A stretch of DNA of 63,208 bases, counting the filler, from an uncultured Methanosarcinales archaeon (GTDB lineage: Archaea; Nanobdellota; Nanobdellia; Woesearchaeales; JACPBV01): NCBI GenBank assembly GCA_964492935.1. It is 3 parts of 3 records of this genome, joined end to end, with 100 filler letters (N's around TTAATTAATTAA, not from the genome) between each part and the next. Parts side by side here need not be neighbours in the genome. Positions count along the whole stretch, not along the records: positions 1 to 30,632 come from CAZBLF010000012.1; 2 more parts are not named here. One strand, 5' to 3'. Numbering within the stretch: position 1 is the stretch's first letter; each line of letters begins with the position of its first letter. Under the pieces are notes generated by a model, which ran no database searches, was not told the DNA's origin, and worked only from the letters and a program-made list of their open reading frames with translations. The translations under genes and the position numbers were made by a program. This document shows, one piece after another, positions 5,332 to 60,078 of the stretch.

Positions 5332-5538
5332 TTAGGGGATGGTTACTTTTACTACTCCACCTACTACTGTTTGAGCGGGAGGTATATTAGACTGAAGTGG
5401 TTCTGAATTTGTAGATTGATCTGTGTTTGATGATTGCTGATTAGGTGTAGTTGTCTGGATGCTCATAAATGTTACGGCACCACTAATTACAACTGAGATT
5501 ATGGCAATAATCAGTAAAACGTGCATTTTCTTTTCCAC
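5332..5538 (-). CDS. Small membrane-anchored protein (TM, polar linker, terminal beta strand)
   Basis: GTG start after TTTATATA box; hydrophobic N-terminus; ends VVGGVVKVTIP. Confidence 0.6.
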   Translation of the reverse strand: MEKKMHVLLIIAIISVVISGAVTFMSIQTTTPNQQSSNTDQSTNSEPLQSNIPPAQTVVGGVVKVTIP

Positions 5539-5619
5539 AGTTGTTTTTCCTTATCGAACTATATAAAGTTTTCTGTACTCGCTAATCAGAACATTAATAT
5601 ATGGGGGATCTAATTATAG

Positions 5620-5820: not shown

Positions 5821-8104
5821 ATCTTTTGCGGAGAAGGGAGCTTTCGAATATGAATTGATTCGAGAGGGTTCAGAGGGAATTATTAGGATTGAGTGTAAGC
5901 AGTACAATAGGGTGCCGTCTTTAGAAAATGATCCGGTTACTTTTCAGAAGACCTGCGATATTATTAATGAGGTGGGTGAGGGCACGCGCTTAGTTTTTAT
6001 TCAGAAGCGCGAGTATGAATATGATGTCGTTCAGACAGGTTACGTTAAGGAGATTGCTGATATCTATCTTCAATTGTATCGACAACGGGAATTGATTAAT
6101 TATACGGCATTTCTTGCTGATAAATCATGCACGCGTTATGCGGCTGCGTGGTATGCTAAGGTCAAGGATGTTGTTTCACGGCATTTAAGAAGTGATCCGA
6201 TCGGAGCTTATGTTACGGTCAAGCGCTTGTTTAGAGATGAACAGATTGCTTTTCAGAAGAGCTCGGATGGGGCTATGAAGAAGTGTATGGCCAAGTATTT
6301 TGAGGTTCTTACGATGCTCATTAAGATGTTTGAGAAGACCAAACTTATTGGTTTGGCACAGCCGCATTTGCCTGGATATAAGATAGGGGATAGGACTATT
6401 TACAGTCGCATTTTTACTCCCAATATCAAGCCTGATTTCTTGCATACTAAGCTTATGTCTAAATTTCCAGAGGAGGGAGATGAGTTGGATAGTTACAAGA
6501 GTGAGGGTACGGAGGTCACTATCTTTAGTTTGCCGGATACAATCCAATATTTGTATCACGTTGTTCCTCCCGAATTTAATCTGACTGAAGATAAGTATGA
6601 GATTTTGGATGATGCGCGTAAAATTATGACCGAGCACAAGCCGAAGAAATCTGAATTTATTGATCCTGAGCGGATGCGCACGGTGTTTTTCAATATTGGT
6701 CGCGATTTGATTGAGGAGCTGGTTGAATACAAGCATATCAAGCTGAAGCAGGCTGAAATTGATGAGTTGACGCACATCTTGGTGCGGTATACGGTTGGAT
6801 TTGGGTTGATTGAGGTGTTGCTGCAGGATGAGAAGATTCAGGACATTACCATTAATTCGCCGATGGGAGAGAGTCCGATGTTTATTGTGCATGCGGACTG
6901 GGGAGATTGTAAGACGAACATTTTTCCTAATCCTTCTGAAGCCGATTCGTGGGCTTCTAAATTACGTATGATTTCTGGTAGGCCGTTAGATGAGGCTAAT
7001 CCGATTCTTGATACTGAAATTACGGTGCCAGGTGCAACTGCAAGAGTGGGAGTTATTTCTAGTCCGTTGGATCCGACGGGATTGGCGTATGCTTTTCGGC
7101 GACATAGAGACAAGCCGTGGACGTTGCCGTTATTCGTTCACAATGGGATGCTTAATTCGCTTGCTGCTGGATTGATTAGTTTTATTGTTGATGGATCGAG
7201 AACCATGCTCATTGCGGGGACGCGATCTGCAGGTAAAACTTCGGTGTTGGGTGCGGTATTAACTGAGATTATGAGGAAGTATAGGATTATCACGATAGAG
7301 GATACGCTTGAATTACCGGGCAATGCATTGCGGAAGCTGGGATATAATATTCAGCAGATGAAGGTTGCTTCTGCTTTAACGAAGGGTAGTTCAGAGGTCT
7401 CAGCAGATGAAGGGATAAGAACTACGTTGCGTTTAGGAGATAGTTGCTTGATTGTGGGAGAGATTAGGAGTAAGGAAGCAAAAGCATTGTATGAGGCTAT
7501 GCGTGTTGGAGCACTGGCAAATGTTGTTGCGGGGACGATTCACGGCGACAGTCCGTATGGTATTTATGATCGTGTTGTGAATGATTTAGAGGTCCCTAAA
7601 ACGAGTTTCAAGGCTACGGATTGTATTGTTGTGGCCAATCCTATTAGATCGGCAGATGGGTTGTCGCGAGTGCGGCGAGTTACCCAGATTACTGAGGTAC
7701 GAAAGAAGTGGGAGAATGATCCTCTTTTGGAGAATGGATTTTCAGATTTGATGAAATATGATGCGGCTACCGACCAGCTTATTCCGGGAGATGATTTAAT
7801 CAATGGAGAGAGTGAGATCTTGAAATCGATTGCGGGAAATGTCAAGGAATGGGCTAGTGATTGGGATGCGGTGTGGGACAATATTCAGCTGCGTGCGAAG
7901 ATGAAGGAGACGATTGTAAACTATGCACGGAAAAGTAAGGATTTTTCGTTATTGGAGGCTGATCATACGATTCAGGCTAATGATGAGTATCACAGAATTT
8001 CTGAATCGGTGCGAGAAGAAGTTGGCTCGCTCGATCCGAAGAAAATCTTTTTTGAATGGAATGAATGGTTGAAGAGAACGATAAAGAGGAAGAAGTTGTA
8101 CTGA
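5813..8104 (+). CDS. Type II/IV secretion (VirB11/CpaF/FlaI family) ATPase
   Basis: Walker A GTRSAGKT, TIEDTLEL Asp box, IVGEIR Walker B, GTIHG His box; start MAESF. Confidence 0.92.
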   Translation: MAESFAEKGAFEYELIREGSEGIIRIECKQYNRVPSLENDPVTFQKTCDIINEVGEGTRLVFIQKREYEYDVVQTGYVKEIADIYLQLYRQRELINYTAFLADKSCTRYAAAWYAKVKDVVSRHLRSDPIGAYVTVKRLFRDEQIAFQKSSDGAMKKCMAKYFEVLTMLIKMFEKTKLIGLAQPHLPGYKIGDRTIYSRIFTPNIKPDFLHTKLMSKFPEEGDELDSYKSEGTEVTIFSLPDTIQYLYHVVPPEFNLTEDKYEILDDARKIMTEHKPKKSEFIDPERMRTVFFNIGRDLIEELVEYKHIKLKQAEIDELTHILVRYTVGFGLIEVLLQDEKIQDITINSPMGESPMFIVHADWGDCKTNIFPNPSEADSWASKLRMISGRPLDEANPILDTEITVPGATARVGVISSPLDPTGLAYAFRRHRDKPWTLPLFVHNGMLNSLAAGLISFIVDGSRTMLIAGTRSAGKTSVLGAVLTEIMRKYRIITIEDTLELPGNALRKLGYNIQQMKVASALTKGSSEVSADEGIRTTLRLGDSCLIVGEIRSKEAKALYEAMRVGALANVVAGTIHGDSPYGIYDRVVNDLEVPKTSFKATDCIVVANPIRSADGLSRVRRVTQITEVRKKWENDPLLENGFSDLMKYDAATDQLIPGDDLINGESEILKSIAGNVKEWASDWDAVWDNIQLRAKMKETIVNYARKSKDFSLLEADHTIQANDEYHRISESVREEVGSLDPKKIFFEWNEWLKRTIKRKKLY

Positions 8105-10281
8105 TGGCTGGACAAGATAAGGGCATGGGAGATTTGATGCAGAAGTACAAGGCGAAGCTAGAGGGCAAACTAGGAGATTCTGATGTTAAACCGACTGAGG
8201 AAATTTCTTCAAAATCGTATCAGGAGTTCAGACAGGAATTTTTACCTACTCATATGAACATTTATGAGAAATTGTGTGCTTTTTCAGAAAAGATTCTGAA
8301 GGTGAAGCCTGATAAAAAGAAGGAGAAGGCTATTAAGAGTGCATTGAAGATTACTCATCTGAATGTTACTCCGGCAGGGGTTGCGTCATTTGCATTTATC
8401 GCTCCTTTTGCATTGATTTTGGCTGCTGCACTTATAGCAACGTTGGCAGGGAGTTTCTTTTTTGCCTTGTTTTTTGTGATTGTGGGTTTTTCAATGATTA
8501 AGCCTCTTCAAAATTTGCCTAGTACGACGGCTGCGAATTGGCGTCTTCGTGCAAGTAATCAGATGGTGCTCTGTATCTTTTATGTAGTCACGTATATGAG
8601 GCATACTTCGAATTTGGAGCTTGCTATTCGTTTTGCGGCTGACCATATTCAACCGCCATTGAGTCTGGACTTGAAGAAGGTGGTATGGGATGTGGAGACT
8701 CAGAAGTTTCCTACGGTTAAGGAATCGCTGGAGTCGTATTTAGATACTTGGAAGAAGACAAACATGGAGTTGATTGAGGCCTTTCATCTGATAGAGGCTT
8801 CGTTGTTAGAAGGAAATGAAGAGAATAGAAAATCTACGCTTGATCGATCGTTAGATGTTATTTTGACTGAGACATATGAAAAGATGCTGCATTATGCTCA
8901 GAATTTGAAGAGTCCTATCACGATGCTTCATATGTTAGGGGTCATTCTTCCCATCTTGGGACTGGTAATACTTCCGTTGATTGTTAGTTTCATGAAAGGG
9001 GTGAAATGGTACTCGATTGCGTTGCTGTACAATGTAGGGTTGCCGTTGATGGTATATTCGATGGGGCGCAAGATTCTTTCGAAGCGTCCGACGGGGTATG
9101 GTGATACTGATATTGGAGAGATGAATGAGTTCAAGAAGTATTCTTATCTTAGGTTCAAGATTGGGGGTAAGGAATTTTCTTTTAGTCCGGCAGGGTTATG
9201 TGTTGTGGTGGGAGCATTATTATTTCTTATTGGAATAAGTCCCTTGATTATGCATTTGTTCATTACTGATGAAACGAACCTGGGTTTTGGGGGATTGGAT
9301 GAGGTTTCTACCTGTCTGAGAACGTATTGTTTGTTGGATTATCGCGTTGGGGAGGATGGAAAGATGGCTGGTCCGTTTGGATTAGGTGCATCATTATTGA
9401 GTTTATTTATTCCGCTTGGTTTGGGGGTGGGATTCGGGTTGTACTATAAACTGAAGTCGAAGAAGGTTATTGATATTAGAAATAAGACTGTAACACTCGA
9501 GCAGGAATTTGCCTCTGGATTATTTCAGTTGGGTAATCGGCTGGGCGATGGAAGTCCTGCAGAGATTGCGTTTGAGAAACTGGGGCGGAGTATGCAGGGT
9601 AGTGTTTCTGGGAATTTTTTCCAGTTAGTAGGCAATAATATTTCTCGTTTAGGGATGGGGGTTTCGCAGGCTATTTTTGATCCTCAGAATGGAGCTATGA
9701 AGTTTTTTCCGAGCAAATTGATTGAGAGCTCGATGAAGGTGTTGATTGAAAGCGTTAAGAAGGGTCCGAAGGTGGCGTCAGCCGCATTGATGAATATTGC
9801 GCGGTATGTGAAGGAGATTCATAAGGTCAATGAGCGATTGAAGGACTTGATGGCGGAGATTCTCGCATCGATGAGCTCACAGATTAAATTTTTGACTCCT
9901 GTTATATCTGGGATTGTTATTGGTATTACGTCGATGGTCACGGCGATTCTAGGAAGATTATCGGCACAGATGAGTAATATTTCGGGAGGTAGCGGTGCAG
10001 AGAGTGCGGCTGGAGGAGGTTTGGTTTCTGGATTCTTTGGGCAGGGTCTACCTACGTATCACTTCCAGGTTATTGTGGGGATTTATGTGGTGCAGATTAC
10101 GTATATTCTTACTGTATTGGCAAATGGTATTGAGAATGGTTCCGATAAATTGAATGAGCGGTATCAGTTGGGAAAGAACATGTTTAGATCGGTGGTGATG
10201 TACTGTATTATCTCTGCCTGTATCATGATGGTCTTTAACTTCATCGCTTCGAAGATAATGAGCACGAGTTTGCTGGGTTAG
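8104..10281 (+). CDS. Type IV pilus/T2SS membrane platform protein (fused TadB/TadC-like)
   Basis: Polytopic membrane protein with two cytoplasmic domains; TGA/ATG overlap with the ATPase. Confidence 0.8.
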   Translation: MAGQDKGMGDLMQKYKAKLEGKLGDSDVKPTEEISSKSYQEFRQEFLPTHMNIYEKLCAFSEKILKVKPDKKKEKAIKSALKITHLNVTPAGVASFAFIAPFALILAAALIATLAGSFFFALFFVIVGFSMIKPLQNLPSTTAANWRLRASNQMVLCIFYVVTYMRHTSNLELAIRFAADHIQPPLSLDLKKVVWDVETQKFPTVKESLESYLDTWKKTNMELIEAFHLIEASLLEGNEENRKSTLDRSLDVILTETYEKMLHYAQNLKSPITMLHMLGVILPILGLVILPLIVSFMKGVKWYSIALLYNVGLPLMVYSMGRKILSKRPTGYGDTDIGEMNEFKKYSYLRFKIGGKEFSFSPAGLCVVVGALLFLIGISPLIMHLFITDETNLGFGGLDEVSTCLRTYCLLDYRVGEDGKMAGPFGLGASLLSLFIPLGLGVGFGLYYKLKSKKVIDIRNKTVTLEQEFASGLFQLGNRLGDGSPAEIAFEKLGRSMQGSVSGNFFQLVGNNISRLGMGVSQAIFDPQNGAMKFFPSKLIESSMKVLIESVKKGPKVASAALMNIARYVKEIHKVNERLKDLMAEILASMSSQIKFLTPVISGIVIGITSMVTAILGRLSAQMSNISGGSGAESAAGGGLVSGFFGQGLPTYHFQVIVGIYVVQITYILTVLANGIENGSDKLNERYQLGKNMFRSVVMYCIISACIMMVFNFIASKIMSTSLLG

Positions 10282-10453: not shown

Positions 10454-10599
10454 TGGGGACGGTGGAACTTTCATAGCTTTTGGCTAATTTGAATCCACGA
10501 CACCTAGATCTCTACCATTCATTGGCTTTCGCCTCAGCAGATCTAAACTGCTCAATTGGGTCTTCAGTCTAGTGCTCTCCCAGGTTGAGCTACGTCCCC
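10454..10599 (-). tRNA. tRNA-Phe(GAA) with two introns: 37/38 (10510-10561, 52 nt) and 59/60 (10468-10487, 20 nt)
   Basis: Acceptor GGGGACG/CGTCCCC-A, D arm GCTC/GAGC, anticodon stem CTAGA/TCTAG with GAA at 10563-10565, T stem GTGGA/TCCAC; no encoded CCA. Confidence 0.93.
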
Positions 10600-10643
10600 A
10601 TCAGTATCAAAGAACTAATAATTACTTTATAAAACTATTGTCA

Positions 10644-11033
10644 TCACAGAACTTCTTCTTCATCGATAGAAGCGCTAAAATCTTCTTTGGAGGGTTGTTC
10701 TGGTGTAGGCGCAGCAGGCGGTGCTTCATCGGTAGATGCATCTTCTTTGCCTAGTACTTCCATACTTCCGAATTTACCGGTTGAGAGCTGCATTTCGCCC
10801 TGCCATTCAGAGACATATCCGTTTGCGATGTGAACTTTGTCGCCTACATTAACCTGATCTATTTGTTCATTCCAAAGAGAAAGAACCATTTCTCCGGTGT
10901 CATCTTTGATTTTTACGTTACATACGCGTCCCGTTTTTCCGAATTTCTCGAACTCTCGAACGTCTTCTTTAGCCGTCACTTCGACGGTAATGTCTACTTT
11001 TCCTTGTCTTGGTTGTAAATCGCTTATTGCCAT
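10644..11033 (-). CDS. Single OB-fold ssDNA-binding protein (RPA/SSB) with acidic tail
   Basis: IKDDTG...LSLWNEQ...VGD OB-fold pattern; acidic C-terminus. Confidence 0.85.
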   Translation of the reverse strand: MAISDLQPRQGKVDITVEVTAKEDVREFEKFGKTGRVCNVKIKDDTGEMVLSLWNEQIDQVNVGDKVHIANGYVSEWQGEMQLSTGKFGSMEVLGKEDASTDEAPPAAPTPEQPSKEDFSASIDEEEVL

Positions 11034-19897: not shown

Positions 19898-22113
19898 TTA
19901 GGGTTCGTATTCTTTTTCTAGAACTTCTTTTATTTTCTTTGCTTTGACGTTGCCAATCTTTTCCACGGTTTGTAGTTCTTCTTTTGAAGCGTTTACGAGA
20001 TTTTTTATGGATTTGAATGCGGTGAGGAGAGGTTTCGCTAGGGTTATGCCGACTCCTGGTAATGCTGCAACCAGATACTCTTGCATGTCTTTGAGTGTTC
20101 CGGTTCTTTTTGTTGCGTGGGGGGTGAAATCTGAGGAGTCTGTTGATTGCTCTCGTTTTGCGATGAGATAGAGTAGGGATGCGCTCTCTTCTGCGTATTT
20201 GCTGAAGAGGATGGGGATGCCGTAGTTTACTACAATGGTCGCAATCATGCCACGAATGGCATTGGGATGGATATTTCTTATTGAATAGAGATCTTCGCCT
20301 TCGATGAGGACTAATGGTCTAGAGTATTGTTCCTTTAACGATTTAAGTTGATCTAACAGTCGTCCATCGATGATGCTGTTGACGAAGTCTTCGGCGGTTT
20401 TGTATTCTACGCCTACATTTTTGCTTAAGAGGTAGTCGGCGTGAGAGAGTTGTTCTAATTGTACATGCACGCCTTTATCGATGAGTTGTTTGATGACTGC
20501 AGATCCTTTCTCGCGGTGATCGACGTACATCTTGATTTCATCTTTCTTGGTGTAGTCTTTCAGTGACTGATCTTCTGACGGTTTCGCGAAATTGAAACTC
20601 ATTTTCTTTTTTATTGTTTCAAGCGTACGATACATTCTGAGTTCTTTGTGGTGAGCGCTCCATTTGTAACCGACGTCTCTTGTGTTTTNNNNNNNNNNGC
20701 CATTAAGACGATGACGCGACCTCTTGATTGTCTTCCGGTTCTTCCTCGTCTTTGAATGGTTCTGATTGCGCTGGGGACAGGTTCGAAAAAGATGACGGCG
20801 TCTACGGAGGGTACGTCAATGCCTTCTTCGCCTACGGATGTTGAAACGATGACATTTATTTCTCCAGATCTGAACTTATCTAGGACTGCTTTCTGGTCTT
20901 TTTGCGAGAGTCCGGTATTTCCTTTCTTGAGTTGGCCAACGAAGAGGGTTGCTTTAACGTTTTCTATGGTGTTGAGATGGTTGACAATGTCGGCTGTATT
21001 GTCTCGGTACTGGTTGAAGACCATGAGTTTGGCATCATCGGTGGTTAGAATTTGAGAGACTAACTTTTTTAGTTCCGCAATTTTTGGGTGTTGGATGCGT
21101 TCTTGGACTAACCTGTTGGTTTTGAAGAGTGCGCTTCTGAATTCTACGTCTGCAACGATATTCTTGACGGCTTTTGTTTTTGAGGTTGTCGAATCTTGTT
21201 GTAATTTGTTGAGGTAGTCGTGCAGGGATTTAACGCCTTGTGTTTCTATGAGTTCTACTGCGTGCTGCATTTTCATGATCTCTGCGAGGACGGAGATGGC
21301 TTTCCAGGCGGTGAAGTCTTGTGTTCCCACGGCTCTACCGCGCAGTTGTGCTTGGAGTTGGAGTAATGCGGTTTTTGAGATGAAATCTGAATTTTGTTTG
21401 GGCATAATATCCCAATCTTGCAGTGTTTTTATTCTGCTTTTGAGAAAATCCTTGAGGTGTTTCAGTACCTCGTTGAATTCTTTTGGTAGTTTGACTTTTA
21501 CCCAATCTACTTCTACTTGCTGGATGTATTCTACTACATCGGGATCCTTATCGGTTCGGACTTCAATGTCTTGAATGAATAAATTTTGGCAGACTTCCTC
21601 TATCTTTTCCAGATCGCTTCCGGGAGATGCGGTAAGTCCGAGTATTCTTGCATATTTTGCTGTTTTTTCATATTGTTTTGCGACCCACACGTAGGCATAA
21701 TCACCCACTGCTCGATGTGCTTCATCGATTCCTAGGAGGCAGACTTCTTCTAGATTGATTCTTCTGTTTATGATATCGTTTTCAAGACCTTGTGGGGTTG
21801 AGAAGATGATTTTGGCGGTTTTCCAGAGTTCCTGTCTTTTTTCTGGCTTTACGTGACCGGTGAATATGGCAAATTGTTCTTTTGGGATGTCGAAATGTTT
21901 TTCGAAAACGCTGAGGTATTGGTCGATGAGTGGTCGTGTGGGTCCAATGAACAGAATTTTGCTGGTAGGATAGAGTTTAAGTCTATGCGCTGCTAACATG
22001 AGGAAGATGTTTGTCTTTCCTAAACCGGTTGGCAGTACAACTAATGTATTTTTTTGGGTGCAGGTGCCGAGAATGGATTCTTGGTAAAGTCTTGGTTTGA
22101 AATCTTTGATCAT
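19898..22113 (-). CDS. hef: Hef helicase-nuclease (SF2 helicase plus ERCC4/XPF nuclease and HhH); one gene interrupted by a 10-N gap
   Basis: PTGLGKT, DEAH, TAS, QRRGRTGR, then VDHRE, VEYK, HhH; alternative frame after Ns (20689-20698) reads TRDVGYKWSA into the nuclease ORF. Confidence 0.9.
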
Positions 22114-30632: not shown

Positions 30633-30732
30633 NNNNNNNNNNNNNNNNNNNNNNNNNNNNNNNNNNNNNNNNNNNNTTAATTAATTAANNNNNNNNNNNN
30701 NNNNNNNNNNNNNNNNNNNNNNNNNNNNNNNN
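30633..30732. other. Artificial contig linker
   Basis: 44 N + TTAATTAATTAA (stops in all six frames) + 44 N. Confidence 0.97.
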
Positions 30733-59978: not shown

Positions 59979-60078
59979 NNNNNNNNNNNNNNNNNNNNNN
60001 NNNNNNNNNNNNNNNNNNNNNNTTAATTAATTAANNNNNNNNNNNNNNNNNNNNNNNNNNNNNNNNNNNNNNNNNNNN
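59979..60078. other. Artificial contig linker
   Basis: 44 N + TTAATTAATTAA + 44 N. Confidence 0.97.

Follow-up and report, generated by a model that had tools for sequence, protein, structure and literature searches.

A tRNA-Phe intron of a Woesearchaeales archaeon as a candidate one-K-turn C/D-type methylation guide for U39 of its own tRNA

The intron between nucleotides 37 and 38 of a tRNA-Phe(GAA) gene from an archaeon of the order Woesearchaeales probably represents, judging from its sequence and that of its orthologues, a C/D-type methylation guide for its own tRNA built around one K-turn (a "halfmer"). The anatomy of the intron, its conservation and covariation, the fixed register of its guide and the presence of the C/D protein genes in the genome are directly supported. 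From these we infer protein binding, an order of events and methylation of U39, the last of which we consider rather likely. The window, i.e., the whole stretch of 63,208 nucleotides that was analyzed, is composite, with runs of N at 20689-20698, 30633-30732 and 59979-60078; only positions 1-30632 represent contig C12 of this genome (1.15 Mb in 57 contigs, 84.8% complete).

The tRNA-Phe gene and the anatomy of its 37/38 intron

By sequence reading, the gene extends from G1 (10599) to the discriminator A (10454) and consists of 74 nt of exons with introns of 52 and 20 nt. The mature tRNA would have the acceptor stem GGGGACG/CGUCCCC, the D-arm GCUC/GAGC, the anticodon stem CUAGA/UCUAG with the loop CUGAAGA, and the T-arm GUGGA/UCCAC. 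Because AGA is repeated at both junctions, the boundary of the 37/38 intron can slide by up to 3 nt. Neither ARAGORN nor Rfam at gathering scores made a call at this locus or elsewhere in the window, and even at E<=1 Rfam placed no family on the locus; the gene was missed because two introns interrupt it. It is flanked by ORFs at 8065-10281 (+) and 10644-11033 (-) and is followed downstream by a T-run, while a sequence resembling an archaeal TATA box, some 30 nt ahead of G1, may be its promoter. The features of the locus are as follows.

10626..10633, minus strand: TTTATAAA, the TATA-like box (sequence only)
10454..10599, minus strand: tRNA-Phe(GAA) gene, read by eye and from homologous tRNA-Phe genes in relatives
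10510..10561, minus strand: 37/38 intron, 52 nt, after G37 (sequence and orthologues)
10539..10547, minus strand: guide (antisense element) UUUAGAUCU (sequence and conservation)
10539-10543, minus strand: guide core GAUCU, identical in 21 of 22 genomes (GAUGU in genome G015)
10542, minus strand: guide nucleotide 5 upstream of the box, an A, opposite U39 (register scan)
10538, minus strand: spacer nucleotide 1, an unpaired G, nearly invariant in Phe, Met, Trp and Leu modules
10534..10537, minus strand: D'-type box CUGA, the non-bulged strand of the K-turn, of which only GA is conserved
10524..10533, minus strand: K-turn C-stem hairpin GGC-GAAA-GCC, with nine complementary stem forms among 22 genomes
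10519..10523, minus strand: C'-type box AAUGA, comprising the 3-nt bulge AAU (10523-10521) and GA (10520-10519), RAUGA in 22 of 22 genomes
10510..10518, minus strand: 9-nt 3' tail of the intron, AUGGUAGAG, the 3' strand of the splicing helices (sequence and orthologues)
10502..10509, minus strand: exon target A38 U39 C40 U41 A42 G43 G44 U45, in which U39 is 10508
10467..10486, minus strand: second intron, 20 nt, in the T-loop and outside the guide (sequence reading)

Read as a K-turn, the GA of AAUGA and the GA of CUGA would form tandem sheared G.A pairs. Within the window, the K-turn pattern TGAGGCNNNNGCCRATGA was found a single time, compared to 0.04 occurrences expected from 100 shuffles. 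The tail AUGGUAGAG ends in AG, which pairs with guide nucleotides 2-3. Motif scans of the tRNA-Phe intron, orthologues included, found no second K-turn, terminal C/D motif or RUGAUGA box, and the shortest orthologous introns (33-36 nt) are too short for a second K-turn; an intron of this kind amounts to a natural halfmer. The exon CUGA (C32-A35) was considered as the source of a second K-turn and rejected since its stem is not kept in UUCC-type introns.

In relatives, T-loop introns were found in the same place with other lengths, all of them ending in GAAAGU. The tRNA-Phe genes of relatives carry up to four introns each, the extra ones being located in the anticodon stem (after CACUAG), the D-loop or the variable region (loci L016, L022, L035, L036 and L059; L050, L057, L058 and L060-L062).

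Conservation of the module and the register on U39

The homologous tRNA-Phe intron was identified in 22 genomes, using BLAST against 61 relatives and a covariance model against 151 genomes of the order. Two of these (G005 and G013) are flagged as unpublished, and every count given here for tRNA-Phe also holds for the other 20. The conserved layout consists of GAUCU, one spacer nucleotide, NNGA, a covarying hairpin, RAUGA and 9-10 nt to the 3' splice site (9 nt in 19 genomes and 10 nt in 3). Spacer nucleotide 1 is G in 20 introns and U in 2, and the box reads AUGA in 15, CUGA in 3, UUGA in 2, CAGA in 1 and UCGA in 1; the boxes of L008 and L039 were taken by eye, since the exon CUGA resembles a box. 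The introns are 33 to 56 nt long, and their 5' third could not be aligned. The C-stem was found as GGC/GCC in 12 genomes, as CUGC/GCAG and CCGC/GCGG in 2 genomes each, and as GCCC/GGGC, UGCA/UGCA, GGCA/UGCU, GGCU/GGCC, GGC/GCU and GACAGG/CCUGUC in 1 genome each, and a model-based alignment of the 22 genomes showed both-sided changes at 2 of 3 C-stem pairs. As read from these sequences, the conserved module of the Phe intron is of K-turn anatomy.

Public contigs added at least 5 further distinct sequences with the same layout, giving at least 27 distinct sequences in all. In the pattern scan of public contigs, 2 of 119 stretches among the matches listed, which were mostly chance bacterial hits, were tRNA-Phe. 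A metagenome scan yielded 10 stretches, including one variant with the anticodon stem CCAGA/UCUGG and an unchanged core target. A covariance-model search of a phylum-wide sample found no Phe intron with a different anticodon stem, and a register scan of Phe introns found two loci (L066 and L067) without the module.

In this genome, guide nucleotides 2-8 form seven Watson-Crick pairs with A(n-1), G(n), A38, U39, C40, U41 and A42, where n is the last intron nucleotide, and three G-U pairs extend the duplex to 10 bp. Pairing of guide nucleotides 2-6 with A(n-1), G(n), A38, U39 and C40 was found in all 22 genomes and pairing of guide nucleotide 7 with U41 in 18, so that the conserved duplex comprises about 5-7 bp in most orthologues, as compared to 10 bp for canonical guides; a guide of 9-10 nt was found only in this genus. 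U39 lies opposite guide nucleotide 5 in all 22 genomes (20 rows parsed by the register scan and 2 read by eye). The last two intron nucleotides are AG in 21 of the 22 genomes and AC in G015, and neighbouring positions vary. In G015 the last intron nucleotide is thus C instead of G and guide nucleotide 3 is G instead of C, replacing a C-G pair by a G-C pair; the splicing helix in the tRNA-Phe gene of G015 is weak. As no other Phe intron found shows a changed target, support from covariation amounts to this one event; moreover, AGAUCU is palindromic, which makes an exon copy and an exon complement indistinguishable by sequence. With G-U pairs allowed, the genome under study contains 81 places that match the 9-nt target of its guide, and due to this tolerance specificity must come from proximity.

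An earlier note on this DNA, made from the window's sequence, had described a miniature C/D guide in this intron. The letters that it reported (CUGA, the GGC/GCC hairpin, AAU-GA and UUUAGAUCU) all lie on the minus strand where it had placed them, and the proposed K-turn with a C'-like box reappears as GA-stem-loop-stem-RAU-GA in 22 of 22 genomes with nine complementary stems. The "perfect D/D' box" CUGA is present at 10537-10534 in this genome and is peculiar to its genus; among orthologues it is better written as NNGA, as 15 of 22 carry AUGA. The orthologue alignment that the note had proposed showed conservation of the box GA, the K-turn and the guide across 22 genomes, with CUGA itself being variable. 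The arithmetic of the guide pairing was right for this genome, but the core that is conserved spans just 5-6 nt, with 9-10 nt confined to this genus. The placement of the fifth nucleotide upstream of the box opposite U39 extends to all 22 genomes, and the note's single-guide version in a tRNA-Phe agrees with there being only one nt-39 guide in the intron. Taken together, all of the computational checks that the note had named turned out in favour of its reading.

The same module in tRNA-Met, Trp and Leu introns

The module, cast as a generic model (R2), matched in 115 of 151 genomes at E<=1, and the 66 best-scoring places were inspected. Among these, 64 were located in introns of tRNA-Met(CAU), Trp(CCA), Leu(CAA/UAA) or Phe; the remaining two were a free-standing bipartite sRNA (L134) and an unrelated place (L137). 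The register analysis left out rows with no recognisable tRNA, i.e., L016 (a Phe intron labelled CCA), L035 on the + strand, L070, L031 and L063, and L072 and L141 were read by eye. In all 62 introns scored (23 Trp, 30 Met and 9 Leu(CAA)), the best register was the one that sets guide nucleotide 5 against nucleotide 34. Guide nucleotide 2 covaries with nucleotide 31, being U with A31 and C with G31. The guides of the Trp introns read UGGAGC, and guide nucleotide 5 of the Leu introns is G with CAA in 8 of 9 cases (the exception, L068, carries an A.C mismatch) and A with UAA in L072 and L141.

The introns of this genome's own tRNA-Met, Trp and Leu(CAA) likewise carry a K-turn or K-loop guide module aimed at nucleotide 34 (loci L166 and L167 are listed with these modules). 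The Leu guide, UUAAGU, has an A.C mismatch at nucleotide 34 and fits a UAA rather than a CAA anticodon. The three modules are located as follows (G000 is this genome).

G000 C6, about 5370-5560, plus strand: tRNA-Met intron guide UGUUUGAGCG-CUGA-CCC-GUAA-GGG-GAUGA
G000 C20, about 16585, minus strand: tRNA-Trp intron guide module
G000 C10, 27871-28007, plus strand: tRNA-Leu(CAA) intron guide module

In Pyrococcus, four C/D sRNAs are aimed at nucleotide 34 of tRNA-Leu-CAA, Leu-UAA, Met and Trp and, according to the available portion of that paper, only the Trp guide is intronic (PMC7994747). The Met, Trp and Leu modules thus land on a known C/D site, indicating that the module behaves as a methylation guide where this can be checked. 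The Phe intron uses the module in the same register, on nucleotide 39.

The free-standing sRNA of genome G070 has the identical module as its C'/D' motif.

G070 C2:27322-27615, minus strand: L134, a free-standing bipartite C/D-type sRNA with the terminal stem GUGUGC/GCACAC

Its boxes are degenerate (GAUGA, AUGA, GAUGA and GAGA), which suggests that the boxes of this lineage keep only their GA dinucleotides. In the genome under study, two simple descriptor scans found no free-standing C/D sRNA.

Two further kinds of element were observed in these genomes. The Trp introns L128, L108, L102 and L129 also share a second conserved stretch, UGGUAUG-UCAGA-N8-CUGAUGA-AGAU, directly ahead of the 3' splice site. 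This stretch has complementarity to the 3' junction, and its layout resembles D and C boxes connected by a loop, as might be expected of a circularly permuted C/D RNA. In addition, a seven-copy family of structured elements of about 100 nt was found in this genome (G000 C4 at about 7079 and about 12690, C5, C9, C16, C19 at about 13381, and C38; loci L164 and L165), with the core NNGA-CGCC-CAUCGA-GGCG-NAUGAG, followed by a hairpin, CGCCGUGCCUCAG and variable complementary ends. This family had no Rfam match at E<=1, and its members are possibly guide RNAs of another kind.

Proposed mechanism, alternatives and known systems

The genome encodes fibrillarin (273 bits), Nop5 (175 bits) and L7Ae (101 bits), the C/D proteins that the earlier note had asked for, with the Nop5 and fibrillarin genes being adjacent (C2:29311-30599) and the L7Ae gene located at C1:33401-33682, as well as the splicing endonuclease EndA and RtcB. 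In the proposed mechanism, L7Ae would bind the K-turn made by NNGA, the hairpin and RAUGA, and Nop5-fibrillarin would dock on the L7Ae-bound K-turn. The 5-10 nucleotides that start at spacer nucleotide 2 would base-pair with the precursor's 3' splice junction, i.e., with the last two intron nucleotides and A38-U41/G44, within the same or a second molecule, and fibrillarin would 2'-O-methylate U39, opposite spacer nucleotide 5. This pairing would bury the 3' splice site and replace the anticodon stem, so that refolding to a bulge-helix-bulge would be needed before EndA and RtcB could remove the intron.

In the bulge-helix-bulge, the central helix pairs C32-G, U33-A/G and G34-C/U are kept in 22, 21 and 21 of 22 genomes, respectively. 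The fourth pair, A35-U, persists in 9 of 19, and the bulge on the 5' side is enlarged; as predicted from sequence, the motif is a relaxed one. When folded without constraints, the precursor favours guide pairing over the anticodon stem (-49.5 kcal/mol, z = -3.6). In constrained folding of nine orthologues, the guide-bound fold never differed from the splicing-competent one by more than about 4 kcal/mol: it had the lower energy in five and the higher in three, and the two agreed to within 0.1 kcal/mol in one (L013). The GCAG/CUGC stem that the earlier note had named as a competitor of the guide is present here; it is peculiar to this genus and not conserved.

This proximity of the two folds is also compatible with a purely structural or regulatory element, in which an L7Ae-bound K-turn and the clamp would serve as a folding chaperone or splicing timer with no methyl transfer, a reading that we regard as unlikely. 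Such an element would fit a guide pairing that covers the 3' splice site itself and rivals the anticodon stem at similar energy, the K-turn at a fixed 9-10 nt from the splice site, like a structural spacer, and the presence of a single K-turn. A splice-site clamp would need no C/D register, however, and the register of the Phe intron, with nucleotide 1 free and pairing from nucleotide 2, matches that of the Met, Trp and Leu modules, which put nucleotide 5 on nucleotide 34 in 62 of 62 cases; moreover, the identical module forms the C'/D' motif of a bipartite sRNA.

It could also be argued that the intron is a real guide with another target, although this seems improbable to us. The excised, possibly circular, intron would then act in trans on mature tRNA-Phe or on tRNAs with a UCUAG stem, or A38 or C40 would be reached by a looser ruler. 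Mature tRNA-Phe does keep AGAUCU (A36-U41) in 21 of 22 genomes, the joined ends of the shortest introns would recreate AGAUCU, and the CUAGA/UCUAG stem also occurs in Met and Leu tRNAs of relatives. What argues against a mature partner is the change in G015, the compensatory guide change that the earlier note had sought: as a single compensatory event, it agrees with pairing at the precursor's splice junction, but would leave G37 of the mature tRNA mismatched. The note had put the target in both precursor and spliced tRNA, of which the precursor 3' splice junction is retained here and the mature tRNA is not. A looser ruler is at odds with reported halfmers, which keep N+5 specificity in the available account (PMC9670817).

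An inert relic, i.e., a K-turn module left from a mobile or duplicated intron, with a complementarity that is a by-product of a duplicated palindromic exon segment, would account for the resemblance of AGAUCUGNUGA to the exon AGA-CUGAAGA and for carriers sharing one anticodon stem, to which a single origin may apply, but it is already disfavoured by conservation (GAUCU, GA and RAUGA are invariant or nearly so across many families in which flanks, length (33-56 nt) and hairpin vary), by the covarying C-stem and by the parallel modules in three other tRNAs, and appears very improbable.

A self-guiding intron directed at U39 would have several implications. One K-turn would be enough for a guide in nature, and two competing RNA folds could order methylation and splicing. 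If the parallel modules are taken together, self-guiding introns would form a family (Phe with parallel Met, Trp and Leu) and provide a selective reason to keep tRNA introns. More tentatively, this order might harbour natural one-K-turn C/D particles that form part of the introns in at least four kinds of tRNA (Phe, Met, Trp and Leu). The Phe clamp on the 3' splice junction would then couple U39 methylation to splicing and require it to come first, and Um39 would stabilize the weak pair A31-U39; we see this broader reading as possible, with the odds against it. The usual pseudouridine-38-40 synthase family (TruA/Pus3, PF01416) was detected in 1 of 151 genomes of the order, which is not the genome studied here, and 3 of 4 archaeal controls were positive. 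The Phe introns would also be very small (33-52 nt) natural guides for in vitro work.

Among the closest known systems is the euryarchaeal pre-tRNA-Trp intron (Haloferax volcanii; sR50 of Pyrococcus), which has been reported to guide Cm34 and Um39 (PMC7994747, PMC4090602, PMC11408192); intron-guided Um39 is established for H. volcanii tRNA-Trp (PMC4090602, PMC11408192). As far as these accounts describe it, it shares with the Phe intron the 37/38 position, the K-turn boxes, an antisense element to its own tRNA and the choice of nucleotide 39 by the N+5 rule. The Phe intron differs in that it belongs to another tRNA, has one guide instead of two and lacks a terminal C/D K-turn, and in that its core of 5-7 nt pairs across the 3' splice junction. 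The Rfam families of the pre-tRNA-Trp guide did not match the Phe locus at E<=1.

The intron of elongator tRNA-Met in Nanoarchaeum equitans has been proposed to be a C/D sRNA (Randau 2012, PMC3491384), at a time when, according to the same paper, only the Trp intron guide was known before. It resembles the Phe intron in being a proposed methylation guide within a non-Trp tRNA intron of a DPANN archaeon. Unlike the Phe intron, it concerns tRNA-Met and has a box C and a box D, and the available portion of the paper mentions neither a nt-39 target nor a Phe case (PMC3491384).

Halfmer C/D RNAs, with one motif and one guide, were found to be active in vitro, with activity and specificity like those of bipartite RNAs in complete particles, as stated in the available text (PMC9670817). 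These engineered halfmers, assembled with Sulfolobus proteins, resemble the Phe intron in their single K-turn, their guide 5' of a D-type box and a target opposite nucleotide 5; they are laboratory constructs with 12-nt guides acting in trans, whereas the Phe intron is natural, lies within its substrate and has a shorter guide (PMC9670817). Crystal structures described in the same source have spacer nucleotide 1 unpaired and nucleotides 2-11 paired, which the unpaired and conserved nucleotide 1 of the Phe intron fits (PMC9670817). Like archaeal box C/D sRNAs in general, the Phe intron has an internal C'/D' motif with its guide directly 5' of D'. The guides of such sRNAs comprise about 10-12 nt; the Phe guide pairs through 10 bp here (3 of them G-U) and 5-7 bp in most orthologues.

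Reviews from 2014 and 2024 give, in their available portions, tRNA-Trp as the one case of a tRNA intron guiding a modification of its own tRNA (PMC4090602, PMC11408192), and no case of a tRNA-Phe intron guide was found in the accessible literature on archaeal intron-borne C/D guides. The Phe intron is therefore rated here as a known principle that, by its sequence, appears with four new traits: a new tRNA, a putative single guide for U39, the form of a natural halfmer and predicted pairing across the splice junction.
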